Shown piece by piece: positions 3,557-47,945 of a DNA stretch of 54,551 bases. Positions within the stretch are counted from its first letter, which is position 1; each line of letters begins with the position of its first letter. This stretch comes from a virus (Duplodnaviria > Caudoviricetes): IMG/VR virus record IMGVR_UViG_3300012231_000002, positions 1-54,551 of that record; one strand, written 5' to 3'. Made by a program: the position numbers and the translations under genes. The notes beneath the pieces were generated by a model that was given only the letters and a program-made list of their open reading frames with translations, was not told where the DNA came from and did not search any database.

Positions 3557-3564
3557 GCCGGATA

Positions 3565-3590: not shown

Positions 3591-3623
3591 CCCGGTGCGG
3601 TATAGCACAGAAAGGAACAAGAA

Positions 3624-4144: not shown

Positions 4145-4411
4145 ATGGCTCCTACAAAGATCGCCGATACTGAGACTCCTGTTCCGAAGACGTTGGATCA
4201 GGTCTCTCTTGAACTGACCGCCGCTCGCCAGAGTATGATCGACAACATGCGCGATCACTACAAGGGTATGAAGCGTGTTCGAGTGAAGGTTCGTAACGAT
4301 GGCGACGTGCCTGTTCAGGTGAACGGGTATACCTTCATTATCCAGTGCAACGTTGACGTTGATGTTCCTGAGGAAATCGCGAACATTCTACGTGAGGCCG
4401 ACTACATCTAA
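4145..4411 (+). CDS. Hypothetical protein (conserved small protein following N4-like MCPs)
   Basis: RBS AAGGA; VPVQVNGYTFII...VDVPEEIANIL motif. Confidence 0.7.
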   Translation: MAPTKIADTETPVPKTLDQVSLELTAARQSMIDNMRDHYKGMKRVRVKVRNDGDVPVQVNGYTFIIQCNVDVDVPEEIANILREADYI

Positions 4412-4442
4412 TCTTCTGTAGAACCCCAGAGCAGAATGGAGA

Positions 4443-4922
4443 ATGAATATGTCAGCAGCAGATGATCCGAACTTGGCGTCTGCTCGCCCCGGAACCACTG
4501 CTGACCTCTCGCGTCGGATGGATCGTATGGAAGTCTCCCATGAGGTTCTTGCCAAAGAAGTCGCCGGGTTGACTACTACTATCGCGCGCGTTGAGTTGAA
4601 CCAGAATCACGCCGAAGAGGTCAACAAACTACGGTTCGACTCGATCGCTCTTGGCCTCTCGACGCTAGAGTCGAAGGTAACTACGTTCATTACTCGGATC
4701 GAGTCCATTATTGACGGGTCCGCGTCCACCGCGCAGTCTCGCGCTGGCGAGCAAATGGTCAAGGACTATCGGTTGTGGCGGGATTCCGTGGAAGTTAGAC
4801 TGGATGAAGCAGATACGCTTGCCATTCAACTCCGGTTTCTCTCGCGAATCATTGTGGCGTTGACGGGTGGATCGTTGATTGCGACCGCATGTGCGGTTTA
4901 TGTGGCGTTCTTCAAGGGTTAG
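4443..4922 (+). CDS. Coiled-coil membrane protein (C-terminal TM; holin-like candidate)
   Basis: Heptad pattern followed by a hydrophobic C-terminal helix. Confidence 0.55.
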   Translation: MNMSAADDPNLASARPGTTADLSRRMDRMEVSHEVLAKEVAGLTTTIARVELNQNHAEEVNKLRFDSIALGLSTLESKVTTFITRIESIIDGSASTAQSRAGEQMVKDYRLWRDSVEVRLDEADTLAIQLRFLSRIIVALTGGSLIATACAVYVAFFKG

Positions 4923-7548: not shown

Positions 7549-7961
7549 TGCCTAATGATCATTCCCTTTATCACCACGGTATGCCTGAGCGTAAGGCAGA
7601 CTGTCATCCAGAACGAAGACACCACGCGCTTGGCAAGTGCCGTAATTGTCATCAACGAGATTTTAGGGCTTCTCGTCCTCCTCGCGATCGTGCCGCCGAG
7701 GGTCGTAAGTGGCGATATGGTCTGACTCCTACTCATTTTGACAATATGCTTTTTCTTCAGGGCGGTCGATGTGACTCTTGTCGCGTTCTTCTTGTTGATG
7801 GTGGTGATGGTCCAGATGGCCTGAACGTAGACCATGACCACTTGACTGGGGTGGTCCGTGGTTTGCTTTGTCGGGCCTGTAATCTTACCATTGGACATGC
7901 TAAGGAAAATGATTTTCGGCTTCAGTCTTGTGCCGATTATCTTAGGAGGGTGAAAATCTGA
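7548..7961 (+). CDS. Recombination endonuclease VII-family (HNH) protein
   Basis: YGLT..F..M...QGGRC..C, VDHDH.TG.VRGLLC..CN..IG. Confidence 0.9.
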   Translation: MPNDHSLYHHGMPERKADCHPERRHHALGKCRNCHQRDFRASRPPRDRAAEGRKWRYGLTPTHFDNMLFLQGGRCDSCRVLLVDGGDGPDGLNVDHDHLTGVVRGLLCRACNLTIGHAKENDFRLQSCADYLRRVKI

Positions 7962-21675: not shown

Positions 21676-23246
21676 TAGAAGGTCACTCCGTTTTCTTCTT
21701 CGTCCGCGATGCTGGCCCACAGGTCATCACCGGCCTTAGGAATTCCAACGGTCTCAGTGGCCGCTGGTGTCATGCTATATTCTACCACGCCTGACAACCA
21801 GTCAACGTCCTCGGGGTCGGGTTCGACCTGACGCTGAAGGAATTCCTGTCTGACCTGAGCCGGGTCGATGTAGATTTGCTGACCCTGCTTGTGGGGGCGG
21901 CGCTTCTTGAAGCCCAGCACATCCAGATGCTTGCCTAGTGTCCTTGTCTTGTAGTACTCCTTCGCGTCCTCTTCGATGTACTGGGTGACGACCTCGTGGA
22001 TGGTTTTGAGGGGGTACCAGTGTTCGTCGTATGGATGACACGTAGCCAGAACGCGAGGCAGTGTGCGCAGAACCAGTCGGATGCGGTCTGTCGCATCGGC
22101 TTGCTTCTGAGACTCGGCGAAGTATTCGGTGAAGAATTTGATGAGAGCCTCACAGCGGGTACCTCCATCGTGTCGGTCCAGATAGTCTGCCAGAATGATA
22201 TACGATTGTGTGATCTGCCAGTGGCGAGACTTCAGGTCGGGGGCCCGTTCGAAGCGTAGAAGCTCGTTCCACTCGTCGGCGATAGCCTTGACTTCCTTCT
22301 GGCTGGTCATCATCCAGAGGTACAGGCGGTCGCGGAGGACTTGCCAGCGCGGGTTGGCTCGTTCGAAACCGGGGATGGCGCGCAGGGCTGGGCGCATGGC
22401 AACGATCACGCAGCGGGACCCGAGTACTTGGTCAAGGGGGTTGATGCTGGCGATAGCTTTGGGACCGTAGACCTCGTAGGGGACCACGATGAACCGGTCG
22501 CCCGGTCCTTTCTCCGTGCGTGTGGCGGTGGAGCCGTCGAGGTAGCCCGCGTTGAGGATGCGACGGAGCGCTTCACCACGCTCACCGTCGAAGCCCTCTG
22601 CCTCATCCACGCACACCACACCGGGGTCACCGGCGATGGTCCTGAACAGTGAAGGCTCGCTCATGGATGAGGACCAGATGGTGTTGAAGGCAAGGGCGTC
22701 AATGATGTTCAGGTTTTGGCTCTTGCCGCTGGCTGCCGTGCCATTGAAGTGGACGTAGCCGATCGCACCGAAGAGTCGGAACATGTAGGAGCCCATCACG
22801 AAGAGCGGCATCATGTCGTAGTACTCGGGCCGTGCGAACTCGATGTACTCGCGGTACACATCCTTCAACCCGTTGAACAGGGTAACAGGGTGGGGCTGGT
22901 CAGCCTCTCCGTTGAGGAAGGTCCGCATGGCGTCCATAGACCAGCGTGCCTTCTGTGGCTGCACTACGGTCTGGGGCCAGCCGAAGCCCTTCTCTGCCAC
23001 GCGGTCGGGGGTGTACGCGAAGTGGGTCCGGTCGCTGGTGATGCAGCCGATACCCAATTCCTTGGTTGCTTCGTCCTTGGCGTCCTTGCCCCTGCCCACC
23101 TTCTTGATGACGTTCAGCCACATGGGGATTGTCAGGTAGGTCACACCGTCCTTGTAGTCGGTGCCGGGGCGCAGGATATCGACCTCTTCCCACGCGAACT
23201 CGTCCAGTACAGTGAAGCCCTTTGCTTCCAGTTCCTCGGCAGACAT
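21675..23246 (-). CDS. P-loop ATPase / helicase-like replication protein (DUF3631-like)
   Basis: Walker A GTAASGKS, Walker B VCVDEAE, ILNAGY, SRC; adjacent to the primase. Confidence 0.75.
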   Translation of the reverse strand: MSAEELEAKGFTVLDEFAWEEVDILRPGTDYKDGVTYLTIPMWLNVIKKVGRGKDAKDEATKELGIGCITSDRTHFAYTPDRVAEKGFGWPQTVVQPQKARWSMDAMRTFLNGEADQPHPVTLFNGLKDVYREYIEFARPEYYDMMPLFVMGSYMFRLFGAIGYVHFNGTAASGKSQNLNIIDALAFNTIWSSSMSEPSLFRTIAGDPGVVCVDEAEGFDGERGEALRRILNAGYLDGSTATRTEKGPGDRFIVVPYEVYGPKAIASINPLDQVLGSRCVIVAMRPALRAIPGFERANPRWQVLRDRLYLWMMTSQKEVKAIADEWNELLRFERAPDLKSRHWQITQSYIILADYLDRHDGGTRCEALIKFFTEYFAESQKQADATDRIRLVLRTLPRVLATCHPYDEHWYPLKTIHEVVTQYIEEDAKEYYKTRTLGKHLDVLGFKKRRPHKQGQQIYIDPAQVRQEFLQRQVEPDPEDVDWLSGVVEYSMTPAATETVGIPKAGDDLWASIADEEENGVTF

Positions 23247-24082
23247 TAGAGGAACTTCCTTCCCGTCATATCTCGGTGGTGGGCGAGGTCTTCACTGTCT
23301 CCGTGTGCTTCGCAGCCGTAGCAGTGGAAAGAGTTGTCGCTGATGTACAGTACCATAGACGGACCGGGGTCGTGGTGGAAGAAGCAGTTCGTTGCGTAGA
23401 GTGCGCCGTGTGAGACCACAGTGCCGCCGAGACTCTCCACCACCAGCAGGATGTCTCGTCGCCCAAGTTGTCGGCGGGCGGCACTATCCATGGCGATAAT
23501 CTCATCGCCGTTCTGGATAACGACCCTCTTCTGTGCTACTCGTGCTTCTGGTTTGAGGATTACTGCCTGAAGAACTTCAGGTACCAGAGGAAGGGGTCGC
23601 GAGTCATCCCGCTCCGCATCCCAATCATAGACTCGCCCGGATGGGTGGACCGAAGGTGGTGCGACCACGTATCCGCCAGCGCCACGATAATCGCAGTGGC
23701 CTCCGAACAGTCCTGCTCGATTGCGTCCCGATTGGAGTGGCTGAAAGTATAGGTGCGTACCCTTCCCTGTTCGGACCACCGGACCAGTGTGTCGGTAATC
23801 CATCCCGAGAAGTTCTTGCAGGGCGGGCACTGACTTGGGTCCGTCGATGTCCAGTACGTCAAATCCCACTCCTGTAGAGAGGCCGATGTTTGCGTCTGGG
23901 AACAGTTGCCACCATTGCAGCACTTGTGTTCGGTCGGTGCTGGCATCAAGAAATCCCCTTGTACCCTTCAGTGGTGCCTTGTCGCGTGGGATCAGGGGGA
24001 AGACAGGCCAGCCCCTCGCCGCATACCTTTCGGCGGCGGCGAGGAACTGGTTGCTTCCCCTAGAACGGGAGGTCATCGCCAT
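23246..24082 (-). CDS. Bifunctional DNA primase/polymerase with C-terminal CHC2 zinc finger
   Basis: GWPVFPL, DASTD, ANIGL.TG, VLDID, RTGKGTHLYF, GGYVVAPPSVHPSG; CFFH.D..PS...FHCYGC. Confidence 0.92.
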   Translation of the reverse strand: MAMTSRSRGSNQFLAAAERYAARGWPVFPLIPRDKAPLKGTRGFLDASTDRTQVLQWWQLFPDANIGLSTGVGFDVLDIDGPKSVPALQELLGMDYRHTGPVVRTGKGTHLYFQPLQSGRNRAGLFGGHCDYRGAGGYVVAPPSVHPSGRVYDWDAERDDSRPLPLVPEVLQAVILKPEARVAQKRVVIQNGDEIIAMDSAARRQLGRRDILLVVESLGGTVVSHGALYATNCFFHHDPGPSMVLYISDNSFHCYGCEAHGDSEDLAHHRDMTGRKFL

Positions 24083-25382: not shown

Positions 25383-26432
25383 CTATTCGGTTGGGGGTGA
25401 GGTTTGCGCCCTTAGTTTAGCGGCTTCGAAATCTGTGACAAGAGAAGATTGGCACCTGTCTCGGAAGCCGCACCACGAACAGGTAATTGGATTGTCCGTG
25501 GGCACGAACACGTTATGTCGGATGCCGTTTTCGATCTGCTCCATCTGAAATGCAAGTCTACGTGCTCGGTTTTCGAAATGTTCGGGGGTCATCAGGTCTG
25601 GTTCACGCGACATTGGGGTCATGTCCGGGCCATCCTTGGTGTTACCCGGTGTGAACATCTTGTACCCAAGGTGGGTGGGCCACAGTCCAGTGATCTTCTT
25701 CACGACGAGGCCGTAAAGTGATAGCTGGGAAGAGAGGTTGACTTCGCCTTGGGACCTCTTCTTGGCTACGAACTTGTAGTCGTCCACGCCCATGCGGACC
25801 ATGCCCTTGTTGGGGACTACGATCTTGCCGAAGTCATCGAACAGTACGTCGATCTTCCCGTTGACAATCCTGATGGGTGTCTCTAGCGGCTCGGGAAGGT
25901 ACTCGTTGATGTCGAGGTTGAATTCCAGTTCGGCTGCGAGCGGGCGAATGGTCGGCGCATCACGGGTCTGGAACACACGGGTAGCCGCGAGGAATTTGTC
26001 CTTGGTTTCTCCCGGCTCGACATCCTTCTCGTACTCGGATGGAGGCATGGCTGACAATTCGTGGTCCATGAAGTCCGAGGCCCATTGGACTACTTCATCG
26101 GGCTTCACGGTCTCGCCGTTCTTCAACTTCCGCTTGACGGCCTTCTCTAGTGCCGAGTGTCCACCCTTACCGATGGCGAGGGAGACCTTGGGCTTGTCCT
26201 TCAGGCCGAGTTTGTAGCGGAACATGTACTGCATGGAGCAGCGGCGGTACATTTCAGCTTGGGAGTTGGAGAGATGGGGGAAGTCCACCCTTCTCTCTGG
26301 GGTGTCACCGGCCTCGACCTCAGGTGCTCCTTCGGCTCTGAGCGCGGCGATGACTTTGGCGGGGAGCGAGATTTCTCTAGGCATACCTAGAGTATCGGTT
26401 GGCTTCTCGTTTGAAACAAGGCGCTTTGCCAT
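25383..26432 (-). CDS. PD-(D/E)XK Cas4/RecB-like exonuclease
   Basis: HLSNSQ..MY..C, G..GH, GKIDV, DDYK, QLSLYG, CSWCGFRDRC. Confidence 0.88.
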   Translation of the reverse strand: MAKRLVSNEKPTDTLGMPREISLPAKVIAALRAEGAPEVEAGDTPERRVDFPHLSNSQAEMYRRCSMQYMFRYKLGLKDKPKVSLAIGKGGHSALEKAVKRKLKNGETVKPDEVVQWASDFMDHELSAMPPSEYEKDVEPGETKDKFLAATRVFQTRDAPTIRPLAAELEFNLDINEYLPEPLETPIRIVNGKIDVLFDDFGKIVVPNKGMVRMGVDDYKFVAKKRSQGEVNLSSQLSLYGLVVKKITGLWPTHLGYKMFTPGNTKDGPDMTPMSREPDLMTPEHFENRARRLAFQMEQIENGIRHNVFVPTDNPITCSWCGFRDRCQSSLVTDFEAAKLRAQTSPPTE

Positions 26433-26433
26433 G

Positions 26434-26913
26434 TTACATGCCTGTGACTGGATCAGGGTTGGTGATCCTTGCTTGCCAGTCTTGGGTGTTCCAAGGGTCT
26501 TTTTCTTGGAGCATGTTCATGTAGTTGGGGGTAATACCCTGATCTGCTGCGATACGCAGGCAGTTGGGGCATTCAATTGGTGTGTAGTAGCGTCCTGCGT
26601 GGGCGAATTGGAGATTGGGCCAGCGGCTCTTGCTCTTGATTCGTCCACAGAGCGGAGTCAGAACTTGTTCTGGGGTCTGGGGGGCAAGGTTCCAGCCTTG
26701 CCATGGGGTCCAGTACGCTCGATTGTCTCTTCGGGTGTACTGGTTTTCTTCTCCGGGTGTGACCATTGGCGGTGGGGTTCCGCGTTCGCGGAGGGTTAGA
26801 TGGGACACGTTCATGTTATCGACTCGACCCAGCGGGGTTCCGTTTCCACCTGTGATCGTGGCCCAGACCCATGCTTCGACACCAACGATTGTGATGCCGT
26901 GCAGTGCTTTCAT
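26434..26913 (-). CDS. MxxLHxI-motif protein (MKALHGI...), with Cys motifs
   Basis: RBS AAGGAG; PLCG...CPNC. Confidence 0.7.
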   Translation of the reverse strand: MKALHGITIVGVEAWVWATITGGNGTPLGRVDNMNVSHLTLRERGTPPPMVTPGEENQYTRRDNRAYWTPWQGWNLAPQTPEQVLTPLCGRIKSKSRWPNLQFAHAGRYYTPIECPNCLRIAADQGITPNYMNMLQEKDPWNTQDWQARITNPDPVTGM

Positions 26914-26991
26914 GCTGTCTCCTTGCGGTAGAACAGCACTCTACGTGAAATTTCGTCAGCTAGATAACGTGATACAAATAGAACGCATGTT

Positions 26992-27174
26992 CTACTGGGA
27001 TGGTAGGGGTTTCGCTCGTGCGAGAATGTCGTGTAGACGATCTGAGTCGTCGTAGGTGATGTACTTGGTCTCGATTCGGTAAACCTCGTTTGAGATTTTC
27101 CGAGCGAGTAATTTGAGGAAGATCAGTTCTTCTTCGGTGAGTCGAACGCCTTCGATCTGGTGAAGACTGTTCAC
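26992..27174 (-). CDS. MxxLHxI-motif protein (MNSLHQIEG..., 60 aa)
   Basis: GTG overlaps the ThiF stop (GTGA). Confidence 0.7.
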   Translation of the reverse strand: MNSLHQIEGVRLTEEELIFLKLLARKISNEVYRIETKYITYDDSDRLHDILARAKPLPSQ

Positions 27175-27884
27175 TTCACCCAGCCTTCCCATGTCCTCAT
27201 ATCGACATGGTTCACCTGACCCTTGGCTAGATCGAACTGAAGTTCGGTCCAGCCGGGGTTTCGCCACTCTCCGGTGTGGAAGCGCCACAACGCAGCAAGC
27301 ATCCAAGCGGCTGCTTGCTGATTGGCGAGGATCAGTTGTCCGCCACCGGGGAGTGCTGCTGCCTGCGCACATGTCATGGCGGCGCGGTCGTCCTTGGAGA
27401 TAAATCGGATTTCGGGGTGCATGAACGTGATCGGGGGTGTGGCGTTCTGCCCGTTTTCGCGAACGTAGAGTTGGACGTTGCCGTCTGACAACTCGTTGCC
27501 TGCGTTGATGACGACCACGTTGGGCAGCTCGGCAGCGCGTTCGGCCACCAGCGCGCGGACGGAGTGGTTGTCCGCAGCGATGAAGACAGTATCGCCTTCC
27601 TGCATCATCTCGGCGAGGTCCACCTTACCGATGAACTTTGGGACCGCGATGACCGGGAAGCGGTTGTACATCCTCGCCATGGCCTCGGCCTTGTTGGCGG
27701 TCACGTAACCCGGTTCGAAGAGTTGGCGTTCGAGGTTGCCGATGTCGTAGTTGTCACCGTCTACGATGGCGAACTGCCACTCTTCGTTGTCCCTGTTCCG
27801 GTGATGGGTTTCGAGGTAGGCCAGTGCTGGGGCAATGAAGTGGCTTCCGGTGCCACCAGCGCCGATGAGAATGTATGAGTTCAT
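27171..27884 (-). CDS. ThiF/E1-like ubiquitin-activating enzyme
   Basis: IGAGGTGS, IVDGD...NLERQ, NKAEAMA, AADN, INAGN, candidate catalytic Cys in AMTCAQ. Confidence 0.92.
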   Translation of the reverse strand: MNSYILIGAGGTGSHFIAPALAYLETHHRNRDNEEWQFAIVDGDNYDIGNLERQLFEPGYVTANKAEAMARMYNRFPVIAVPKFIGKVDLAEMMQEGDTVFIAADNHSVRALVAERAAELPNVVVINAGNELSDGNVQLYVRENGQNATPPITFMHPEIRFISKDDRAAMTCAQAAALPGGGQLILANQQAAAWMLAALWRFHTGEWRNPGWTELQFDLAKGQVNHVDMRTWEGWVK

Positions 27885-28396
27885 TGGGGTCCTCTATCGT
27901 AGTCGCAGTTTTCACACCATTGACCGTCGTCTTGGTATTCGCCGTCGCCGTTTACCCAAACGTGACCGTCTTGTTCGCATCGGTCGCGACGGGTGACTAC
28001 CTTGATAGCGTCAAGGTCTAGTGGTGGAAGCGCGGTGACGTTTTCGGTTGATCGGCGGGCGATATCTACGAGATATTCTTCTCCACCGGTCCACCACTCG
28101 CTGTCGAGCCAGTTTTCGCCTTCGGTGTTTCGTCGGGTGAATTCCATCTGTTCGCGGTAGTACTGGGTGGCCTGTGTTGGCGTCATCCATGTACCTTCGC
28201 GGTGGTAGTCATCATCCTCTCGGGGGTGGATGATGTATCGCTGGTGGGTGATCTGCTCCTCCCACAACCCGAGTGGATAGCCATTCTCGGTCCAGCGGTC
28301 CAGAAGGGTGCCACGACCGTCTCTGATCAGGTCTTCTGTGATATACGGGAGTCCGTCATATCGTAGAGTGCCCTTGATTTCGTGGAGCCCTTTCAT
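27881..28396 (-). CDS. MxxLHxI-motif protein (MKGLHEIKG...), C-terminal C...GH.W...CENC
   Basis: RBS AAGGAG; ATGA overlap with ThiF. Confidence 0.75.
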   Translation of the reverse strand: MKGLHEIKGTLRYDGLPYITEDLIRDGRGTLLDRWTENGYPLGLWEEQITHQRYIIHPREDDDYHREGTWMTPTQATQYYREQMEFTRRNTEGENWLDSEWWTGGEEYLVDIARRSTENVTALPPLDLDAIKVVTRRDRCEQDGHVWVNGDGEYQDDGQWCENCDYDRGPQ

Positions 28397-28404
28397 ATTT
28401 CTCC

Positions 28405-28686
28405 TTACTTCGTGACGAAATGGACCTCCGACATTCGCTTTTGGGCGATTTCGGCGTACTTGTCGCGAAGGTTTTGTGTGTCTCGGTAGCGTGGCTGAAT
28501 ACGGGCCCAGCCGGGTCGCTGCCAGTATTGAAGGTCGGTGTTTCGGTAGAATTCGGGAATGATGTAGCCGCGCTTGGGCGTGGTTCGAACGCGGACTTCG
28601 TGGCCCTCGTTCAGCATTCGACCAATAGAGGCTAAGTCGATAGAGGATAGTTGTGGCACGCTGATGATGCCGTGCAGGGGCTTCAT
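28405..28686 (-). CDS. MxxLHxI-motif protein (MKPLHGI..., 93 aa)
   Basis: ATGA overlap with the upstream gene. Confidence 0.7.
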   Translation of the reverse strand: MKPLHGIISVPQLSSIDLASIGRMLNEGHEVRVRTTPKRGYIIPEFYRNTDLQYWQRPGWARIQPRYRDTQNLRDKYAEIAQKRMSEVHFVTK

Positions 28687-28886
28687 CCGTTCTTGCCGTA
28701 TCGTTCGATGTAGGTTTCCATTTGATTTCTGGCGTCCTCCATCGTCTGATACGCCCTCCATGTTATGTCTTTTTCTGTGCGCTTGTATTCGAGATGTCCT
28801 TTGTTGTCTCGGAACTCGTATCCGGCGTTTTTCGTGGTGAACCATTCCAAGACATTGGAATTGTCGATGGCGTGTAGCGTGATCAT
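28683..28886 (-). CDS. MxxLHxI-motif protein (MITLHAID..., 67 aa)
   Basis: ATGA overlap with the upstream gene. Confidence 0.7.
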   Translation of the reverse strand: MITLHAIDNSNVLEWFTTKNAGYEFRDNKGHLEYKRTEKDITWRAYQTMEDARNQMETYIERYGKNG

Positions 28887-29083
28887 CGGATTGTGTATCC
28901 GGTCCGCTGAATCCATCCCATCCAGTATTCGACACTGGAACCACTTCGCCACTCGCCTAGGAGTGGGAGTTCCCAGACGATTCCATTTCGGATTTCGAAC
29001 TTGTAGCGGTTTTTGAAGTGTGCGTTGATGATTTCGAGAAGGGCCTCTTCCCTTGTGCCTTTGATGTCGTGGAGCGCGTGCAT
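28883..29083 (-). CDS. MxxLHxI-motif protein (MHALHDIKG..., 66 aa)
   Basis: TGATG overlap; RBS GGAGG. Confidence 0.72.
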   Translation of the reverse strand: MHALHDIKGTREEALLEIINAHFKNRYKFEIRNGIVWELPLLGEWRSGSSVEYWMGWIQRTGYTIR

Positions 29084-29391
29084 CAGGACAGATACCTCCG
29101 AAAACCGTCCAAGCCACAGGAGCATTGGGTTTCGAGTTTTACGCAGTCTCGTTTGTGTTGGAGTCGTCCGTCCCAGAAGTCTCCAAGAGTACGAAGTGCT
29201 TCGAACAAGTCCTCGCGTGACGGAGTAGGTCGATCGCCTTGGGGCGTACTGTCCCGGTTGGGTGCCATGGGACTTGGTACTCGTTCAGGCACGTTAGACA
29301 AAGACTGGTCGTCTCCACCGTTATTGTCGGGTCGAGGGACCCGCAGAGGGCGCAAGCGAGGTTCTTTGTCAGGTGCCATTGGTGGTTCCAA
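29083..29391 (-). CDS. Hypothetical protein (H...C...CSCGL); start uncertain
   Basis: Stop overlaps the next ATG. Confidence 0.4.
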   Translation of the reverse strand: MEPPMAPDKEPRLRPLRVPRPDNNGGDDQSLSNVPERVPSPMAPNRDSTPQGDRPTPSREDLFEALRTLGDFWDGRLQHKRDCVKLETQCSCGLDGFRRYLS

Positions 29392-29535
29392 ACTCCGTCG
29401 TTCCAGACTCGAAACCTTTGAGCAAGTGCTCGGTAGGTCTCTTGATAGAAGCCCCGTTTTTCAAGGGCCTCTATCTGAGCGATGTGGGGGAGACAGTGAT
29501 CCCGGTGCGTGTCTGCGTGCTTCGGGGAGAAGTCG

Positions 29536-29946
29536 TTACAGCGATGTACCGGGGTCCGAGTCTCGGATTCCGACCAGTTCACGGTCGAGGTCGGCCGCGT
29601 GCTGTGCGATTCGGTGAGCAAGGTCTCGGAGATTGGTCGTGCGCGCTTCGGGCGTCCACTTCCCGTACTCCGCGATGGCTTCGGTGATGCCTTTCGCGAT
29701 GAGGTCGGACTTGGCGTGGGTGGCTGTGCTGACGGCTTCGGTCTTGGCTCGGGCATCCCAGTGCTTCCTTGCTTCGTCCAGTTCGCCAAGCGCCTCCTTG
29801 TCCGTGACCTTGACATCATCGTCGTTGATGCAGGCCACGAGGAAGAGGATGTGCTGGCTCGCCCGGAACATTGGCGGGAAGAATCCGCTGCCTGTGGGCG
29901 TCCGCCCCGTAAAGGGCAGTTCCTTGATGGTGTCGGCGAATGCCAT
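29536..29946 (-). CDS. Hypothetical protein
   Basis: RBS AAGGG; phage-like codon use. Confidence 0.65.
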   Translation of the reverse strand: MAFADTIKELPFTGRTPTGSGFFPPMFRASQHILFLVACINDDDVKVTDKEALGELDEARKHWDARAKTEAVSTATHAKSDLIAKGITEAIAEYGKWTPEARTTNLRDLAHRIAQHAADLDRELVGIRDSDPGTSL

Positions 29947-29947
29947 G

Positions 29948-30253
29948 CTACTTGTCCCTTTCTGTGGGGAATTCGGGAAGATCGTACTCTTCCCTGATCT
30001 GGGTGATGCCCTTGGCTGCGAGTTCTTCTAGGTGTTCCTTCTCGGCCTTGTCCACCATGTCCTTGATTCCGAGCAGGAATAGAAGCTTCTCTTTCTGCTT
30101 CTTCTTGTGTTCTTTCTTGTTGAGGTATTCGATAATGGTGGCGGTCACGTAAAACGTGAACACGACCGCCACGCCGATCCATCCGGCCATGGAATATGAC
30201 CCGAGGAAGGCGATGATCCAGATGGCTATTCCGATCATGGCGACTGCTAGCAT
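29948..30253 (-). CDS. Two-TM membrane protein
   Basis: Two hydrophobic helices and a charged tail; TAATG overlap with the JAB gene. Confidence 0.7.
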   Translation of the reverse strand: MLAVAMIGIAIWIIAFLGSYSMAGWIGVAVVFTFYVTATIIEYLNKKEHKKKQKEKLLFLLGIKDMVDKAEKEHLEELAAKGITQIREEYDLPEFPTERDK

Positions 30254-31842
30254 TAGTTCAGCCCTTTCTGGCTCATGTCTTCGGGTGGTGTGGCGGTTTC
30301 TGGGAGCAGTGCCATGTCCAGATCGCCGGGGATTGACCCGGTGACCTTGAATGAGACATTGAGGCCCAGCGTCCTGAGGACGTGGATTGATCGGAGTGTC
30401 TTGGACAGGAAGGCTTCTTGCCAGTACTCGGGGTCTCCGGCGATGTCTGGGTGGCGAAGGGCGAAGTCGATGTCGTCCTCGTTCACCTGATCGCTGTCGA
30501 ACAGGAGTTCTAGGACATCGGGCGGAAGGAGTTCCTCCCAGTGCTTGTCCTCTGATTCTGACCAGAGGCCCATTTCTCGAAGCTCGGCTTCGGAGAAGGA
30601 CTTTTCGAGAGCGCCTTCCTTGTCCCAGTCCACGCCACGTTCGGCCGCTCGCCGTGCGTTGAACTGTCGGGATTCCACCAGTGCCATGGGCTCGGTGTTA
30701 CCGACGAACTCCCAGTTCTTGATGCGAGGAGCCCAGCGGTAGCCCTTCTCGACTAGGAGTCGTGGTGAGATTCCCTCGTAACCTTCAGGTGGGCCATCAA
30801 GTCCCTGAAGCCGATAGAATTCGTCCCAGTCTTCGGCCCGATATCCAATCGGTTCGTTGGCAGGACGAGAGAGTGGTGCGTCGAAAGCCTGAGCCCGAAT
30901 GGTAGTGCCATTTTGACCGGGAAACGTGATGGTGCCGTCTTCGGCTACCACCCAGCTCTTGTGGACGAGGCGATGAAGCCTCTGGTTCCACACCCAGTCC
31001 TGCGTGAGATTGGAGCGTCCGACCGGATGCTGTCCCTGTCCCTGTGGCTGGGTAACTGGGGTGATCTTGGTGGTTGCGAATTCGTTGCCCACACCGGTCG
31101 GCTTGTTGAACTTCTTGTATAGTTCGTAGCCAACTGGCTTGGTCCGGGTCTTGGTGTCTTCGACGTAGCGATCCCACCACGCGGGGGCTTGGTGCTTCTT
31201 GACCTCGGAGAAGTCGAAGAGAAGCGGGAACTGGGACTCCTGATAGTGGATTAGTCGCTTGTTCATGGCGACCATGGCCACGATCTGCGGGGTTTCCCTC
31301 TTGATCATCCCGATGGTGGCGTGGAATCCGTCGAATCCCTCTGCATCCTTGGTGTCCGTGCCGCTGTGGCCTGCACCGAAGTCGCAGTGAGAGTGGATCG
31401 TTCCAACGAGGACCCAAGGCAGGGCGATGTGGGTCGGATCGAAGACGTAGTTGACTCCACCATGGGAGACTAGCTGCGTTGGGATGAACGCGCGCCATTC
31501 CTTGGTGTCTTGGTTCATGCAGAGCAGGACCATGGCTTCCGTGTGCTGGTAGTCATAGATTCGCTCGAAGAACGTCACGACATGGGACATGATCACGGCG
31601 GGGATCGGCGGGGCTTCCCACCAGAACATGCCCGTGGAGGTCCCGACCTTTGGGAAGAACTCGGGCCATGTTTCGACTCGTGCGATGCCGCGACCTAGAA
31701 GGCCGCGTCGATGCAGGAACAGTCCGTCCTTGGCTCCGAAGTAGAACGGATCGGGACCGTCTGGAACGCCATCCCAGCCGTCTTGTCCCAACTTCAGGAG
31801 AGCGCCGAACGCCGGGGGCGGGGGCGGCTTTCGCTTGGTCAT
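30253..31842 (-). CDS. JAB/JAMM (Mov34/MPN) metalloprotease with long C-terminal extension (PRTRC protein A-like)
   Basis: TEAMVLL...VGTIHSHCDFGAGHSGTDTKD = E...HxH-x7-S-x2-D; start MTKRKPP with ATGA overlap. Confidence 0.9.
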   Translation of the reverse strand: MTKRKPPPPPAFGALLKLGQDGWDGVPDGPDPFYFGAKDGLFLHRRGLLGRGIARVETWPEFFPKVGTSTGMFWWEAPPIPAVIMSHVVTFFERIYDYQHTEAMVLLCMNQDTKEWRAFIPTQLVSHGGVNYVFDPTHIALPWVLVGTIHSHCDFGAGHSGTDTKDAEGFDGFHATIGMIKRETPQIVAMVAMNKRLIHYQESQFPLLFDFSEVKKHQAPAWWDRYVEDTKTRTKPVGYELYKKFNKPTGVGNEFATTKITPVTQPQGQGQHPVGRSNLTQDWVWNQRLHRLVHKSWVVAEDGTITFPGQNGTTIRAQAFDAPLSRPANEPIGYRAEDWDEFYRLQGLDGPPEGYEGISPRLLVEKGYRWAPRIKNWEFVGNTEPMALVESRQFNARRAAERGVDWDKEGALEKSFSEAELREMGLWSESEDKHWEELLPPDVLELLFDSDQVNEDDIDFALRHPDIAGDPEYWQEAFLSKTLRSIHVLRTLGLNVSFKVTGSIPGDLDMALLPETATPPEDMSQKGLN

Positions 31843-32224: not shown

Positions 32225-33094
32225 CTAGGCAACCTTCTTACCGCTGTCTGCGCGGATGTTGGCGAGACCGACCTCGATCCGCTCCCTCTCTTCGGGAGTC
32301 AGTTTCATCAGCCACTCTTCGGTGCGTCCGAAGGTCATGGGCGTGATGATTTCGGGGATGCGACCAATGACCTCGATGGGAGCGCTTCGGTCGCTAAGCG
32401 TGCCCATGATCTTGCGAACTGTGGTGTAGGTCAGTCCGGGGACCTTCTTGCCCTTGGCGTGATCCCATTCGGGGAAGGATAGGAAGGCGGCGGGGTCCTT
32501 CTTGGACTCCTCTTCCCAGCGTGCCCAAGTGTCACGGCCGGTCTCGCTCATCCACGGGCTGCCTGCGCCGGAGCCGTGCGTGAATGTGGTGCGGTAGAAC
32601 TCGTCAATGGTCTGGTCGATCCTCTGGGCCAGTGAGAGGTTCTGGTGGGTGCTGGTCGTACCCCAGCAGATGTTCCCGCTGGCCGCCACGTTGGGCACCA
32701 TCGCGGTCATCAGTTCTTGGTCGAGGTTTGTGATGTTCTCGCGTGACCAGTACATCCGAGTGTTGACGTGGACCCAGTTCCGACCCTCCATCGGGTCTCC
32801 TGAGGTCTGAAGGTCAAACAGGAAGTACGTCCATGGCAGCGAAATCTGGTATCGCCGATCGTTGTACTTGCATGTGAACATGCCAGCGGTGTGCTCGGCG
32901 AGAATCTGCGCCTTGGCTTGCTTGGCGTCGCTCTGGTCCCAGTGAACGATGATCGCGCTCTTGGGCAAGATGCCAACGGTCACTGGTGGGCGGTTCTCGA
33001 TGTACGGGAGGAAGTCCTGAAGTCGGCCCTCGGTGATGACTTCGACTCGCTGGTGTCGAACGAGGTCACCTTCGATGAGCAGTTGATCGGGCAT
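32225..33094 (-). CDS. Prokaryotic E2-like conjugating enzyme (PRTRC protein B / Prok-E2 type)
   Basis: LPWTYFLF...AMVPNVAASGNICWG...FYRTTFTH; catalytic-type Cys in NV..G.ICWG; RBS AGGAG. Confidence 0.8.
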   Translation of the reverse strand: MPDQLLIEGDLVRHQRVEVITEGRLQDFLPYIENRPPVTVGILPKSAIIVHWDQSDAKQAKAQILAEHTAGMFTCKYNDRRYQISLPWTYFLFDLQTSGDPMEGRNWVHVNTRMYWSRENITNLDQELMTAMVPNVAASGNICWGTTSTHQNLSLAQRIDQTIDEFYRTTFTHGSGAGSPWMSETGRDTWARWEEESKKDPAAFLSFPEWDHAKGKKVPGLTYTTVRKIMGTLSDRSAPIEVIGRIPEIITPMTFGRTEEWLMKLTPEERERIEVGLANIRADSGKKVA

Positions 33095-33175: not shown

Positions 33176-33394
33176 TCAGACGCCCTTGTTGCCAGCGGCC
33201 TTCGTCGCCTGCACGCGATCGCCGTCAGCGAGGCGCGTGGTCGGACCGGCAGCAGCGCCGTTGACCGCGACTGCGGCATCGGCGGCGATGCCGAGGGGGC
33301 CAGCGACCTCGCGGAAGAGGTCGGCGACCGTCTCGACGGTCTCGTTCTCGATGGTGAACGTGCCACTGGGCGTGGTCACGGTGAGCTTCGGCAT
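33176..33394 (-). CDS. Ubiquitin-like (beta-grasp, ThiS/MoaD-like) protein ending ...AGNKG-V
   Basis: TVADL, AVAVNG, TRLADGDRV; strong RBS AAGGAGG. Confidence 0.88.
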   Translation of the reverse strand: MPKLTVTTPSGTFTIENETVETVADLFREVAGPLGIAADAAVAVNGAAAGPTTRLADGDRVQATKAAGNKGV

Positions 33395-33585: not shown

Positions 33586-34011
33586 TCAGTCCGGTAGTGG
33601 GACTTGTTTGTCTATGCAGATGGTGACAACTGCTTCGACCCATTCGGAGAGTTGATCTTGTTCGATTATGACGACATCGGTTCTGGTCTCGATGTCGGGA
33701 TACTTGGTTTTTAGGTTCTGTAGAAGTTGGGGGGAAGGGTAAATCAGGGTGTGATTGGCGCGTTCGATCACCCCACCTGAAGTGAGGAGTTCGATGCTAC
33801 CTTTCTCGAATTCTACCCCTTCCTTTAGCTGGGTCGCCGCTCCTTTCGAACCTGTGGTGACGAGGATGTGGCCGAGCCTCGCGATGCACCTTCCGATGAA
33901 ATTGAGCGAGACTGCTTCTTCTTCGGTGATAGTGGCTTTTCCGATGAATCCGATTCGGGGGTTTCGAAGAGTTCGGGTTGACTTCTTAGTCCGGGTGTCA
34001 ACTCGGTCCAT
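33586..34011 (-). CDS. SLOG/LOG-like Rossmannoid protein
   Basis: RIGFIG...FIGRCIARLGHILVTTGSKGA. Confidence 0.55.
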   Translation of the reverse strand: MDRVDTRTKKSTRTLRNPRIGFIGKATITEEEAVSLNFIGRCIARLGHILVTTGSKGAATQLKEGVEFEKGSIELLTSGGVIERANHTLIYPSPQLLQNLKTKYPDIETRTDVVIIEQDQLSEWVEAVVTICIDKQVPLPD

Positions 34012-40105: not shown

Positions 40106-40585
40106 TCATACGAACGCTCCTGTGCGGATGTTGAAGACTGGCTTACCTTCCTTTAGCGCGTACTGGATGCAGTTCCATGTGCCGCCGTGCGTCTTGCCTG
40201 TCCAATAGGTCCATACCTCATCTGCGCGATCGACCATGGCGATGTTGCGTTCCTGATAGCGCTGAATCTCGTAGTAGTCTGCGCCGATGACCGTGATTGA
40301 CTCGGCGTGTTCGAGATGTCGGCGTAGCGTAGCCCTGCTTGATTCGGGCCAGAACTTCGTCATGGCGCGTGTCGTGAATGGCAGGATGATGTGGTATGGG
40401 ATGTTGTGGACGAAAGCCCATTCGGTAGCGTAGGTGTCAATGCCTAGCGCGCCGCCCGTGACGAAGATCAAGTCTCGGTATGGTGAGGCTGTCTCGTCAC
40501 GGTTGTTCATCAGGTCTGCGAATGCCCGATAGTCGAGGCTGCCCAAGTCCTTCGGCCGATGTCCTGTCCAAGCGATAGTTCGCAT
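40106..40585 (-). CDS. SLOG-family protein (YspA/DUF1273-like)
   Basis: IAWTGHRP, VTGGALGID, ILPF, YQERNIAMVDRAD, GGTWNCIQYA. Confidence 0.9.
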   Translation of the reverse strand: MRTIAWTGHRPKDLGSLDYRAFADLMNNRDETASPYRDLIFVTGGALGIDTYATEWAFVHNIPYHIILPFTTRAMTKFWPESSRATLRRHLEHAESITVIGADYYEIQRYQERNIAMVDRADEVWTYWTGKTHGGTWNCIQYALKEGKPVFNIRTGAFV

Positions 40586-44107: not shown

Positions 44108-44633
44108 GGCCCCGCCGCCTAAACTCGGTATTGCGTGTCCGACGAATTGCACATTCCATCCCTCTAAGATCGGGTGGAAGAACGCCAACGCGCTGGCGGC
44201 GACTCGCGCCCGTGGTGCCGGAGAGATTGTCTTCCTCCGTCGATATGAGGAACTGACCGGTCTTCGGGCTGCTAATACGACTGCCCATCGGCATTTCAAG
44301 CATTACGTCAAGCCCGCTGACCCGAAATCCGACGAAGAGGTCGTTGAGGGGCCGAAACCTTCTGATATCCAGATTCTTGACTCGATTATCGGCGCTGGCT
44401 TCAGGAATTCCAAGAATTGGAAGCCTACGATTCGTGATACTCTGGAAGCGATGAAATTGAAGACTCAAATGACCGGGAATTCCGCGTTTGACGAGTTGAT
44501 CGCTCTTTTCGACGTTAACGATGACGGCGAGGATGAGGATTCTGCCCCTGAGAGCGCAGATGCCCTGCTTTCTCCCGATGAAAGGCCCGACGAGGGCGCT
44601 GAAGAGCTAGAATCCCCTCTCGGCGGCGAATAA
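44085..44633 (+). CDS. terS: Probable terminase small subunit
   Basis: Directly upstream of and coupled to TerL; acidic tail. Confidence 0.55.
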   Translation: MTLDPQTEAPPPKLGIACPTNCTFHPSKIGWKNANALAATRARGAGEIVFLRRYEELTGLRAANTTAHRHFKHYVKPADPKSDEEVVEGPKPSDIQILDSIIGAGFRNSKNWKPTIRDTLEAMKLKTQMTGNSAFDELIALFDVNDDGEDEDSAPESADALLSPDERPDEGAEELESPLGGE

Positions 44634-46180
44634 TGGACGCCCAGCAGAAGCGAAGGGCGATCGTCCGGGCGAGTAAGGCCGATCCGGTCTTCTTTGCGAA
44701 CAAGTTTCTTCCGAAGAAGCCCCATCCGGGTCAAGTAACGTGGTTGACGAACAGTAACGCGGCCATTAACGTCTTGGTCCCCGGCAACCGCTGGGGCAAG
44801 TCCACCGTTATCGCCATGAAGCACATCTGGAAGTGCGTCTTTCGGGTCGGCCAGACCCGCGACGAGAAGCTGGCGGGCGATCCCTACGAGACCATTTCGG
44901 TCGCGATGTCGGCGGATCAGGCCGAAATCGTCTTCCGAGAGGCCAAGAGGCTTCTTTCGAGCAAGGGACTGCGGCCTCTGGTCAAGGCGTTCCGTTCCAG
45001 TCCCTTCCCGCACATCATCTTCACCAATGGCGCTGTTATGCACTGTCGATCTGCGCATGATGACGGGAAGTACATCGACGGCCATCGCTATATGTACCTG
45101 TCCATTGATGAGGCTGGCTGGATCAACAATTTGCGGCACCTGATGACTAACGTGATCCTGATGCGGCTGGCTGGCGGCGGTGAGATTGACCTGATCGGGA
45201 CGCCCAAGGGTTATAACGACTTGTACTTCTACTATGAGCGTGGTCAGCGGGGTATCGACGGGTATTACAGCCAGCGGGGGAGCATCTACGATAATCCGTT
45301 TCTGCCTAACGAAGACATCAAGATGCGCGATAAGATGTTGATGTCCGCCGATCCGAAGATGCGTGAACAAGTCCTGTACGGCGAGTTCGTTGACTTCACT
45401 GGCTTGGCGTTCACCCGAGACCAGCGAGACAACGCATTTGACCCCGCCCTGCGCGAACACCAGCGCTGGCGGGATGGCCATAAGTACATTGTCGCGTGGG
45501 ACCTCGGGCGGACTACCGACTATACCGTGGGCATCGTCTTGGACATCACGACCCGGCCGTGGACCCTCGTCTCTTATACCCGCCTGAATCGAGTGTCTTG
45601 GGAGGAAATCTATGCGACTATCGAGCGCGTGGCGAAGGAATATCACGTTTCATACTCGACAATCGACTCGACGGGTCCTCAGGGCGACATTATCGAGGAA
45701 GAACTTACGAAACGCGGCACGATGGTCTATGGGTACAAATCGTCCACCAAAATGCTGAAAATCGAGCTGATCAACAACTTGCAGACCGCCTTGGACGAAG
45801 GTCGGACCGCTGAGCGCTTTGCGGAGGAAAAGGATGAGAATGGACATATGATTACCGTCCCGATCCTTCAGCCGCCCGGTACTGGGTGGGGACTCCTCCG
45901 ATTGCCGACTATTACCCAGTTGATGGACGAAATGGGCGTCTATTCGCTCGATGACAAGGATATTCCGTTTACGGACTCGGTTATGTCTCTTGCTCTCGCT
46001 ACATACGCCGCATATGAGGCCGAGGGCCTGACTGAGCCCGTGACCGGTGGTGTCTTCGGTTCTGGCAATCGTGGCGAGGATGAGGTTCCGAATTACCCTG
46101 CCGTTGGGCTGGACAAGACTTGGGCTAATCGTAAGATGGCTGAACTTGCTGAAGAGACGTTAATGTCCGATCCGAGATAG
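44633..46180 (+). CDS. terL: Terminase large subunit
   Basis: PHPGQ, GNRWGKST, SIDEAG, IGTPKG, AWDLGRTTDYT, DSVMSLAL. Confidence 0.95.
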   Translation: MDAQQKRRAIVRASKADPVFFANKFLPKKPHPGQVTWLTNSNAAINVLVPGNRWGKSTVIAMKHIWKCVFRVGQTRDEKLAGDPYETISVAMSADQAEIVFREAKRLLSSKGLRPLVKAFRSSPFPHIIFTNGAVMHCRSAHDDGKYIDGHRYMYLSIDEAGWINNLRHLMTNVILMRLAGGGEIDLIGTPKGYNDLYFYYERGQRGIDGYYSQRGSIYDNPFLPNEDIKMRDKMLMSADPKMREQVLYGEFVDFTGLAFTRDQRDNAFDPALREHQRWRDGHKYIVAWDLGRTTDYTVGIVLDITTRPWTLVSYTRLNRVSWEEIYATIERVAKEYHVSYSTIDSTGPQGDIIEEELTKRGTMVYGYKSSTKMLKIELINNLQTALDEGRTAERFAEEKDENGHMITVPILQPPGTGWGLLRLPTITQLMDEMGVYSLDDKDIPFTDSVMSLALATYAAYEAEGLTEPVTGGVFGSGNRGEDEVPNYPAVGLDKTWANRKMAELAEETLMSDPR

Positions 46181-46247: not shown

Positions 46248-47945
46248 GTGTCCGAGATGACCCGAGATAAGGTCGTAGAGCTTGAACGAGCGCTTCGCCA
46301 AGAGTGGAACACGCGAAATGCTGAATACGACCTCTCGCGGCGTCGATACTTTGGCGATCACTGGGATGCCGAGACAAACCCCGAACCGATCAATCGCTAC
46401 AGCCTGACGCTGAACTATCTGAAGCCGTTCACCGATAAGAGCATCCAGTCGCTCGTTGGGCGGATTCCGGCGATTCAGGTCATGCCACCCGGTACCACGG
46501 AGCCCGACCGCCGTCACGCCGAGGAATTGGAAGGCGTTCTCTACGGGACGTGGGAAGCCAACGATATGGCGACGATCCTTCAGAAGACCGCTTGGGATTC
46601 CTTTGTCTTGCGTCGCGGGTTGATCTACCTCTGGTGGGACCCTGACAAGAGAATGGTCAAGATGAAGAACTGCGCACCCGAGCATTTCTTCCCCGACTAC
46701 GATGGCGACGAGATTTACCGTGCTATCTACGTTCAGCGCCGGAAGACCGAGGCGCTGAAGGAGCAGTATCCGAATCATGCGTCAGATATCCATTCTGACA
46801 GTGGGATGAACCATCCGTTCGTGGAGGGTTCCGATCCCAACCGGACCGGCGCTACTGACCAGACCACGGTCGTGGATTGCTATACGGCCGATGGTTGGTT
46901 CTATCGCGTGATGGGTGATGCGTTCATCTCCCAGAAGCTGGACCTTCCGTGGGAGGGAATCCCGTTCGTGGAGTTCCCGTGCTACCCGGTTTCCGGGGAG
47001 ACTGAGCCCCTGAACCTTCTTGATCAGCTTGTTGAGTTGAACCAGTACCTCGACCAGTTGGTGTCGCAGCAGGCTGATATCATCGCCCGGTATGCCAACC
47101 CCGTGGTTATCGCGAAGGCGACTGGTCAGAGTCCTGAGGCGATTCGCAAGGCGATGGGCTCGCCGGGTGCGGTTATCCCCGTGCGCCCTGACGGCGACCT
47201 GACCCTGCTGGGTTGGTCTGGGAATATCCCCGCCATCGAGCAGCAGATGGAGTTCGTGATTGACTCACTGTTTGACCTCGGCGGGAAGCCCCGGAGTGCC
47301 TTCGGTCAGCAGACGAGTCAGCAGAGCGGCGTTCAGACGAATCTCTCGCTCTCGCCGACCGTCCAGAGCAACGAGTACCATGAGTCGATCTGGGGCCAGC
47401 GCCTTGGGTGCCTGAACAAGTACATTCTTATGCTCTGGGAAAAGAACATGCCGGGTGACATCATCCATTTCGAGGGGAGTTATCGCAAGGCGAGCGGAAC
47501 CCAGACCTACTACGATGTGTCGATTACCGGTGAGGAAATCGAGGGCTGGTACAAGAACCGGATCAAGTGGCCTAGCGCCTATCGGATTGACGATCCGGTC
47601 TATATCCAGAACCAGCTTCAGCAGTTGACGAGTGATCCGCCCGCTATCTCGCTTTATACCTATCAGGAGAATGTGGGTCGCGAGGACGTGGAGGCTGAGA
47701 TTGATAGGATCAAGGAGCAGTTGATGGACCCGCGTATCCATCCCGAGCGTCTTCAGTCCGCCGTGGATGCTGCCGCCAGCGTGTCGGGGGCCGGACTCGA
47801 TCCGGGCTTTGCGCCCGATGCTGGTCTTGGGCTTCCCGGTGTCGAGCCTGATACGGGCGTTGCTGGTGCTTTTGGCGAACAACTGGAAGCTGGCGCTACG
47901 CCCTATACGTCGGACCTCGCTCAAACCGCCAAGCCGAAGTACTAA
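46248..47945 (+). CDS. Portal protein
   Basis: Follows TerL; 565 aa; RBS AGGAG + GTG; IPFVEFP, LVELNQYLD..VS motifs. Confidence 0.85.
   Translation: MSEMTRDKVVELERALRQEWNTRNAEYDLSRRRYFGDHWDAETNPEPINRYSLTLNYLKPFTDKSIQSLVGRIPAIQVMPPGTTEPDRRHAEELEGVLYGTWEANDMATILQKTAWDSFVLRRGLIYLWWDPDKRMVKMKNCAPEHFFPDYDGDEIYRAIYVQRRKTEALKEQYPNHASDIHSDSGMNHPFVEGSDPNRTGATDQTTVVDCYTADGWFYRVMGDAFISQKLDLPWEGIPFVEFPCYPVSGETEPLNLLDQLVELNQYLDQLVSQQADIIARYANPVVIAKATGQSPEAIRKAMGSPGAVIPVRPDGDLTLLGWSGNIPAIEQQMEFVIDSLFDLGGKPRSAFGQQTSQQSGVQTNLSLSPTVQSNEYHESIWGQRLGCLNKYILMLWEKNMPGDIIHFEGSYRKASGTQTYYDVSITGEEIEGWYKNRIKWPSAYRIDDPVYIQNQLQQLTSDPPAISLYTYQENVGREDVEAEIDRIKEQLMDPRIHPERLQSAVDAAASVSGAGLDPGFAPDAGLGLPGVEPDTGVAGAFGEQLEAGATPYTSDLAQTAKPKY

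Follow-up and report, generated by a model that had tools for sequence, protein, structure and literature searches.

F-box and SOCS-box receptors of cullin-RING ligases carry a folded docking domain of about 40-50 residues on variable target-binding bodies, the E2 of NEDD8 has an N-terminal extension that docks in a groove of its E1, and the precursors of ribosomally synthesised and post-translationally modified peptides (RiPPs) have conserved leaders and are encoded beside E1-like or ThiF-like enzymes. Among phages, the internal proteins of T4, which are diverse and encoded outside the structural module, share a short conserved N-terminal peptide, the capsid targeting sequence (CTS; available part of PMC3012670), and in bacteria genes of the ubiquitin-like protein (Ubl), E1, E2 and JAB types are grouped in one block (Iyer et al. 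2006, available part of PMC1779556). Here we analyse IMGVR_UViG_3300012231_000002 (Duplodnaviria; Caudoviricetes), a complete IMG/VR record of 54,551 bases with direct terminal repeats (123 bp) and a G+C content of 57%, the whole of which is called the window below. Six small genes around its E1 gene begin with M-x-x-L-H-x-I, and this motif is shared across a clade of related contigs, in which it has outlasted the similarity of the protein bodies behind it.

Six motif genes around the E1 gene

The E1 gene lies between the fourth and the fifth motif gene, and the seven genes are arranged as follows:

28883-29083, minus strand: motif gene 1, 66 amino acids, MHALHDIKG; TGATG junction at 29083, the start overlapping the stop of the upstream frame by one base
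28683-28886, minus strand: motif gene 2, 67 amino acids, MITLHAIDN; ATGA overlap with motif gene 1 at 28886
28405-28686, minus strand: motif gene 3, 93 amino acids, MKPLHGIIS; ATGA overlap at 28686
27881-28396, minus strand: motif gene 4, 171 amino acids, acidic (net charge -17), MKGLHEIKG; C-terminal C/H zinc-ribbon-like motif
27171-27884, minus strand: E1-like adenylyltransferase, 237 amino acids; ATGA overlap at its start, 27884; Pfam ThiF 1.2e-14 over residues 4-150
26992-27174, minus strand: motif gene 5, 60 amino acids, GTG start, MNSLHQIEG; GTGA overlap with the E1 stop at 27174
26434-26913, minus strand: motif gene 6, 159 amino acids, MKALHGITI; AAGGAG 7 nucleotides upstream, after a 78-nucleotide gap

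The genes and their starts are confirmed. A preliminary description of this DNA had reported six starts of the form M-x-x-L-H-x-I, mostly coupled genes, variable Leu codons and four starts concealed in longer open reading frame (ORF) calls, and re-reading of the minus strand returned the starts exactly as claimed, the same six Leu codons (CTC, CTA, CTG, CTC, CTT and CTG from 29083 to 26913) and the four masking calls (28883-29125, 28683-29117, 28405-28944 and 26992-27372). That the true starts might lie elsewhere, which the same description had named as a risk, is countered by a codon-usage score trained on 15 long genes, which shifts frame at all six motif starts and at the E1 start, and by the database gene calls P0121 and P0124 (171 and 93 amino acids), which use the same initiator Met. 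Shine-Dalgarno sites (AAGGAG) precede the starts at 28396 and 26913.

A six-frame scan of the complete 54.5-kb genome found no M-x-x-L-H-x-I start beyond these six. A start codon followed by xxLHx[IL] occurs at 8 places in the 54,551 bases, 6 of them being the motif genes; the other two (1548 on the minus and 42961 on the plus strand) have L at position 7 and lie within longer frames. The shorter word LH.I was found 15 times in 109,098 six-frame positions, 6 times as residues 4-7 of the motif genes and once inside the 60-residue protein of motif gene 5, which thus holds an internal second copy, LHDI.

The 78 nucleotides at 26914-26991 are the sole sizeable non-coding gap in the block and contain an inverted repeat (AGAAC-ATGC-GTTCT) before motif gene 6; consensus scans for promoters and terminators stayed at background level, and none was called in this gap. 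Between a conserved ORF of 136 codons upstream and motif gene 1, two overlapping candidate frames with weak and similar coding scores occupy 29083-29536 on the minus strand; one ends at 29139 with a CxxC...CxxC stretch, the other at 29083, and neither begins with the motif.

Recurrence of the motif in related contigs and selection on the peptide

Relatives were fetched through an alignment of 24 E1 homologues and comprised 9 metagenome contigs and 65 species-representative genome loci. Among the 65 genome loci only L011 is close (E1 59% identical); the other 64 are distant cellular ThiF loci and were used as controls. The close set thus consists of ten E1-bearing contigs (L002-L011, 27.5 kb in total). 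In 7 of these ten, 19 further motif ORFs of 71-175 amino acids were found, with M-x-x-L-H-x-[ILV] at the N-terminus (4 in L002, 3 in L003, 6 in L004, 1 each in L007 and L008, 2 each in L010 and L011; E1 homologues of 54-75% identity), against 3 strict matches in the 943,133 bp of the control loci. The count of motif starts in related genomes that the preliminary description had proposed falls on the side of a clade-wide motif. L005 has a variant shorter by one residue (MNLHNLP), as has the protein P0137, a second gene of L007 begins MKNLHNA, and L006 and L009 have no motif ORF. The motif stands at a constant distance from the N-terminus in all 25 motif genes.

Where orthologues could be recognised, the motif was kept. 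The product of motif gene 3 has an orthologue in L010 (L010:239, beginning MRNLHTI) with 37% identity in the alignment (A3) and 33% by BLAST of residues 10 onward, and motif gene 4 has one in the same contig with 33% identity in the alignment; by BLAST from residue 10, orthologue pairs of only 30-33% identity retain the motif. Word-index searches for homologues added one relative of the 171-residue protein and, for the 93-residue protein, none beyond L010. A profile search of 1.84 billion representatives returned 15 members of the 171-residue family, 14 of which were aligned (P0135, with 660 amino acids matched over 39 residues, was excluded). At 25-44% identity, 10 of the 14 begin with M-x-x-L-H-x-[ILV]; of the other four, one is shorter by a residue, one carries Gly in place of His, and the gene calls of two have shorter N-termini. 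The contigs of the close clade range from 37 to 65% G+C, and given this range the hosts probably differ widely. L011 is a 4.8-kb contig binned in a metagenome-assembled genome labelled Flavobacteriaceae; short-contig binning is weak host evidence.

Selection acts on the peptide and not on a DNA repeat, because the Leu, His, Ile and Ser codons vary freely while the residues are constant. Across the 25 motif genes, Leu4 is encoded by all six of its codons (CTC 3, CTA 10, CTG 4, CTT 3, TTA 4, TTG 1), His5 by both (CAC 14, CAT 11) and position 7 by all three Ile codons and two others (ATC 9, ATT 4, ATA 10, GTA 1, TTA 1). In L002 the octapeptide MSLLHSIP is constant while 26 of 38 codon pairs for identical residues differ, Ser AGY/TCN included. 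When contigs from four runs with near-identical DNA were compared with the window, the sole population variant within a motif was synonymous (28675, CTG>CTA, in runs X2 and X5 at low depth). The claim that the peptide rather than a DNA repeat is selected, made earlier from six Leu codons, is thus borne out on the wider set. Readings of the motif as a downstream box or RNA operator, or as a linker for recombination, were rejected on the same codon variation.

The variable positions of the motif (2, 3, 6, 8 and 9) are more alike within than between genomes, with an identity of 0.341 for 41 pairs within genomes versus 0.070 for 259 pairs between them, and none of 5000 label permutations gave a within-genome value as high. 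Genome-specific flavours include MSLLHSIP, MNNLHKI and M[KR]xLHxI; position 2 is K or R in 12 of the 25 genes, and in L004 the codons AAC AAT recur. The flavour of L002 survives saturated synonymous change, a sign of a constraint particular to that genome. Co-evolution with one reader per genome would give such genome-specific positions as its expected outcome.

Behind the motif the proteins differ. BLAST of residues 10 onward of the 25 motif proteins gave only 4 of 300 non-self pairs at E<=0.01, namely two orthologue pairs, one pair of paralogues (L002_1212 and L002_1565; 33% identity, E 1e-8) and one weak match between Cys-rich proteins, and with leave-one-genome-out profiles a single one of 22 proteins, with an orthologue in its training set, outscored every one of 200 shuffles. 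At the sensitivity reached, the earlier statement that nothing is shared past residue 9 holds. The bodies include the acidic 171-residue type with its zinc-ribbon-like end, basic alpha/beta proteins of 93 residues and, in L008 and L011, Cys-rich proteins, and isoelectric points range from 4.3 to 10.3. For five of the six window proteins Pfam gave no family; the match of the sixth to ABC_tran_Xtn (17 bits against a cut-off of 25.9) was dismissed. PHROGs gave no match for any of the six, and neither database gave a match to an E2 family; likewise, no conserved Cys was seen.

AlphaFold2 (AF2) models were made of two proteins. The model of the 171-residue protein has a mean predicted local distance difference test score (pLDDT) of 87.4, with an average of 66 over the first ten residues, and that of the 93-residue protein has a mean of 75.2, with an alpha-beta body and residues 1-9 below 50 (mean 41). 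The motif is accordingly predicted to be a short linear motif on a flexible tail outside the fold. In Foldseek at E<=0.001 the 171-residue model had no match in PDB or BFVD and the 93-residue model none in PDB; the ESM Atlas gave no usable match to the 93-residue protein.

Two features of composition were noticed besides. In 4 of 7 loci the motif protein encoded immediately before E1 is strongly acidic, with three different families represented (net charges of -17, -15, -19 and -9 for window 27881-28396, L010:537, L004:243 and L008:212). Tryptophan appears by eye to be high in most motif proteins (2-6% of residues in 20 of the 25, a figure that stands by itself and not against a background).

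A proposed common reader of the tail and the alternatives to it

We favour, with a probability of roughly 0.4, the explanation that the tail is a short linear handle read by a common partner, for which the adjacent Ubl/E2/JAB/E1 block is the first suspect because of synteny; roughly half of that probability belongs to the link with the Ubl block. The M-x-x-L-H-x-[I/L/V] tail, which purifying selection keeps on small early proteins with unrelated bodies across this metagenomic phage clade, would be a recognition handle that one partner reads on many cargo or adaptor bodies. We infer a single reader because the distance from the N-terminus is fixed, the tail is predicted to be disordered, the bodies are unrelated, conservation extends beyond that of the bodies and the flavours are genome-specific. 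The candidate reader would be the divergent conjugation module next door, and if it reads the tail, the tag would mark a set of interchangeable adaptors or one class of substrates. To place the reader within this module, rather than in another phage protein or a conserved host protein, is speculative. We regard as improbable the more specific proposal of a phage Ubl ligase with fast-evolving plug-in adaptors, which would dock through the seven-residue tail and each recruit a different host protein, e.g., a defence factor; if true, the set of adaptors would be a viral counterpart of the F-box receptor families built on a short linear motif. A candidate in which Ubl is joined to a Lys of the motif itself was rejected, as two of the six window proteins have no Lys in residues 1-9.

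The genes of the candidate module lie upstream of the motif genes on the same strand, in the order Ubl candidate, E2 candidate, an ORF of 127 codons, JAB candidate, a membrane protein of 101 amino acids and the ORF of 136 codons:

33176-33394, minus strand: Ubl candidate, 72 amino acids; Pfam ThiS 1.1e-4, 23.1 bits against a cut-off of 22.5
32225-33094, minus strand: E2 candidate, 289 amino acids; Pfam Prok-E2_D 8.4e-5, 22.8 bits, under the cut-off of 25
30253-31842, minus strand: JAB candidate, 529 amino acids with a long C-terminal extension, start MTKRK; Pfam Prok-JAB 5.6e-3, under the cut-off
29536-29946, minus strand: conserved gene of 136 amino acids that precedes the motif/E1 block; a homologous C-terminus stands at the left edge of L004

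Of the four assignments that of E1 is clear; the Ubl match only just reaches its Pfam cut-off, and those of E2 and JAB fall short of theirs. E1 begins MNSYILIGAGGTGS, with GxGxxG from residue 8, and matches only ThiF in Pfam; it has 184 homologues at E<=0.001, Cys172 is invariant in the 24 that were aligned, and its best PDB relative by sequence is MoeB (8e-6). The E2 candidate has no PDB relative by sequence. In the JAB candidate HSHCDFGAGHSGTD can be read, with the motif HxHx7Sx2D, and its homologues lie upstream of E1 in L009 and L011. In PADLOC only E1 had matches, weak ones of the E1-E2 type (best 4.3e-5); Ubl, E2 and JAB had none. A tblastn search of cultured phages with E1 gave 6 records, all below 30% identity, and pattern scans of IMG/VR for E1 gave no relative. 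For the protein of 136 amino acids the ESM Atlas returned only helical look-alikes under the bar of the tool; a frame of 149 codons directly upstream of E1 in L011 resembles it by eye only. The early region also has two SLOG-family candidates close to the Ubl block, at 33586-34011 (minus strand; LDcluster4 2e-4, under the cut-off) and at 40106-40585 (minus strand; YpsA 2.5e-8).

The tie of the motif to the E1-bearing clade is supported. Of the 10 loci that extend upstream of E1, 7 have the motif in the gene next to it on that side (and L005 has the shorter variant there), and these genes overlap or abut the E1 start, though they belong to different families; the gene downstream of E1 bears it in the window, L002, L003 and L011. 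From 217 IMG/VR relatives of the major head protein, 27 records were tested that had been picked mainly for length (18 of them at least 90% complete). None of the 27 contains E1, and the DNA pattern of the motif occurs in them 11 times, against 5 for a reversed control, with at most 2 per record and no arrays. The three closest records (G003, G004 and G005; capsid 59-85% identical) end before the E1 region and are uninformative on co-occurrence; one of them ends inside an E2 homologue. Searches of IMG/VR with tandem-motif DNA patterns at three spacings returned 7, 20 and 10 loci, of which 36 of 37 proved on inspection to be AT-rich chance matches, short ORFs or DNA repeats; the remaining one is L091, described below. 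A complex prediction of the E1 dimer with the 171-residue protein (score 0.07, mark 0.32) says nothing either way.

Several observations weigh against a reader in the Ubl module, or against a reader at all. Synteny is the sole basis for placing the reader in the module, the E2 and JAB assignments of which are those of candidates with Pfam scores under the curated cut-offs. The gene upstream of E1 in L011 and the gene downstream of it in L004 lack the motif, and in L009 (E1 44% identical) JAB abuts E1 directly. The motif genes of L004 are spread over 6.5 kb; five of the six follow E1 at a distance of 1.7-5.2 kb and have early genes for neighbours, a phosphatase-like and a ligase-like one included, so that the tag may mark an "early accessory protein" rather than a "Ubl partner". 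Since all motif loci were found through E1 and belong to one clade, the association of motif and E1 could be confounded by descent. The 23-kb IMG/VR fragment L091, which lacks ThiF and homologues of the window proteins, has two adjacent and apparently coupled plausible motif starts (MTTLHHI, 127 amino acids, at 5537, and MTILHII, 70 amino acids, at 5746, both on the minus strand), either by chance or because a similar tag arose there independently on a small scale. The low pLDDT of the tails can stem from shallow alignments (14 and 2 rows) and is common at termini, and the likeness of the variable positions within genomes could come from recent duplication; in L004 the recurrent AAC AAT codons leave room for this or for gene conversion. 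The neighbours of the L004 motif genes were named by eye only, from CGAGISRS (CX5R, phosphatase-like) at 3308-3850 and KIDGTN (ligase-like) at 4205-4861. The preliminary description had seen in the motif a docking peptide on receptors or substrates of the adjacent Ubl ligase; the unrelated bodies, the predicted flexible tail and the tie to the E1 clade agree with a docking peptide, while for the ligase as its partner and for a receptor or substrate role the gene neighbourhood is all that speaks.

In the rest of the phage genome, PHROGs and Pfam named all of the following genes but the last, and a polymerase exonuclease besides:

44633-46180: large terminase
46248-47945: portal
2606-3556: major head protein
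7548-7961, plus strand: endonuclease VII (PHROG 3.6e-24), among mostly unannotated plus-strand ORFs downstream of the head gene
23246-24082: primase-polymerase
25383-26432: PD-(D/E)XK nuclease
47949-54551 into 1-1710, plus strand: ORF of 2729 amino acids, directly after the portal gene and spanning the 123-bp terminal repeat

The ORF of 2729 amino acids has no PHROG match and in Pfam matches only MHB, below threshold (20.3 bits, cut-off 27.4), is kept at 24-64% identity in three capsid-related IMG/VR records and could encode an internal or ejected virion protein. A DNA search with 7.6 kb against cultured phages gave no match; near-identical DNA occurs in freshwater-sediment and groundwater runs, and none of the listed runs is an RNA run.

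The tail might instead be an intrinsic element of fast-diverging paralogues, in which, e.g., the invariant His binds a metal or the tail plugs a target site, with no dedicated reader. In favour are the tandem arrays, which point to duplication, the recognisable paralogues L002_1212 and L002_1565, and the within-genome likeness of the variable positions; by eye, a helix and then a beta hairpin follow the tail in many members (in the alignment and the 93-residue model). Detectable homology along the bodies, as expected of one paralogous family, was found neither by BLAST (the 4 of 300 pairs above) nor by the profiles, which did not rise above the shuffles; body types and isoelectric points differ, and neither model matched PDB nor the 171-residue model anything in BFVD, in searches that set the models against databases and not against each other. 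We consider this explanation unlikely, if still worth attention. Slightly less probable, but kept as a serious rival, is a signal of the T4 kind for packaging and ejection, by which the tail would send diverse small, plausibly anti-defence, proteins into the procapsid for injection with the DNA, a scaffold or core protein being the reader. A short constant N-terminus, unrelated bodies, a gene number that varies between relatives and a location outside the structural module all suit it, and the ORF of 2729 amino acids could encode an internal or ejected protein. PHROGs, however, named no prohead protease among 20 ORFs of the structural and neighbouring regions (most of which had no match at all), a conserved cleavage-like residue after the motif is absent, no structural gene starts with the motif, and the motif genes are coupled translationally to E1 in one block with the nuclease and primase genes.

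A host machine as reader, such as an AAA+ protease adaptor or Hsp70 acting on an N-terminal stability or chaperone signal and giving the early proteins a common lifetime, is in our estimate quite improbable. Some bacterial protease adaptors do recognise N-terminal motifs, and the fixed distance from the N-terminus in all 25 genes (set beside the shorter variants of L005 and P0137) and the K or R at position 2 in 12 of them would suit such a signal; but L4, H5 and I7 are fixed across a clade of 37-65% G+C with hosts that are probably very different, and the genome-specific positions suit a co-evolving phage partner at least as well. Least probable by far is a nucleic-acid signal at the 5' ends of the genes, which might control translation as an operator or link exchangeable cassettes in recombination, and of which the peptide would be a by-product. 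The DNA word CTNCACNNNATC does occur 8 times in the window, 6 of them at motif starts, the gene number between conserved flanking genes differs among relatives, and AAC AAT recurs in L004; yet all degenerate positions vary (CTN/TTR, CAC/CAT, ATC/ATT/ATA, Ser AGY/TCN) at constant amino acids, and the shared sequence is no longer than the codons themselves. The codon data already largely refute, and nearly exclude, this explanation.

Comparison with described systems

The likeness to the F-box and SOCS-box receptors is one of idea, i.e., one constant docking element, many variable bodies and one ligase. The constant part here is not a folded docking domain but 7-9 residues on a tail predicted to be disordered (mean pLDDT 66 and 41 in the two models). 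The NEDD8 E2 shows that the adenylation domain of an E1 can bind a short N-terminal peptide; there the peptide sits on an E2, and the motif proteins have neither an E2 match nor a conserved Cys. With RiPP systems the locus shares neighbouring genes of constant N-terminus and hypervariable remainder beside a ThiF-fold protein. However, the window E1 (237 amino acids) has no extra N-terminal domain that might bind a leader, and the bodies of 60-175 amino acids, two of which are modelled as folded (mean pLDDT 87 and 75), do not resemble short unfolded cores. Bil, Bub and the Cap2/Cap3 genes of the cyclic oligonucleotide-based antiphage signalling system (CBASS) likewise have, in the available parts of their descriptions, one block with genes of the Ubl, E1, E2 and JAB types. 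The block of the window differs in being phage-encoded and very divergent, and it was not recognised as such a system by the PADLOC profiles. In the available parts of the literature on these bacterial Ubl operons, no tagged accessory gene family beside them is mentioned.

Short linear motifs in phage proteins are seldom seen as cleanly as in this fixed N-terminal heptapeptide, which unrelated bodies bear across 37-65% G+C, and the tail would be usable as bait to find its reader. If the Ubl machinery reads it, the tail would be the first clue to the choice of partners by a phage-encoded ubiquitin-like system; if a head component reads it, this would be a second, independent invention of the capsid targeting of T4 and possibly a tool for capsid loading. 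Either way, the motif labels small ORFs that are otherwise unannotatable, together with their start codons, in related phages.

The closest likeness in anatomy is the T4 CTS: there, as in the 25 motif genes, phage proteins that are otherwise unrelated begin with a short conserved peptide. The motif genes differ in being interleaved with and translationally coupled to the E1 gene, and the likeness concerns anatomy only. By this analogy, as far as the available part of the source goes, a CTS would fit the anatomy of the motif equally well as docking to the Ubl module. The preliminary description had stated that no phage system of such design was described. The literature on phage Ubl/E1/JAB systems, capsid targeting and tagged receptors, in its available parts, contains no description of the motif, and that part of the statement stands; the T4 CTS, a design similar in principle, had not been considered in it. 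On these sources the novelty lies in the motif, in the clade that carries it and in its place around a phage E1, and the principle of a shared N-terminal label is known from T4.

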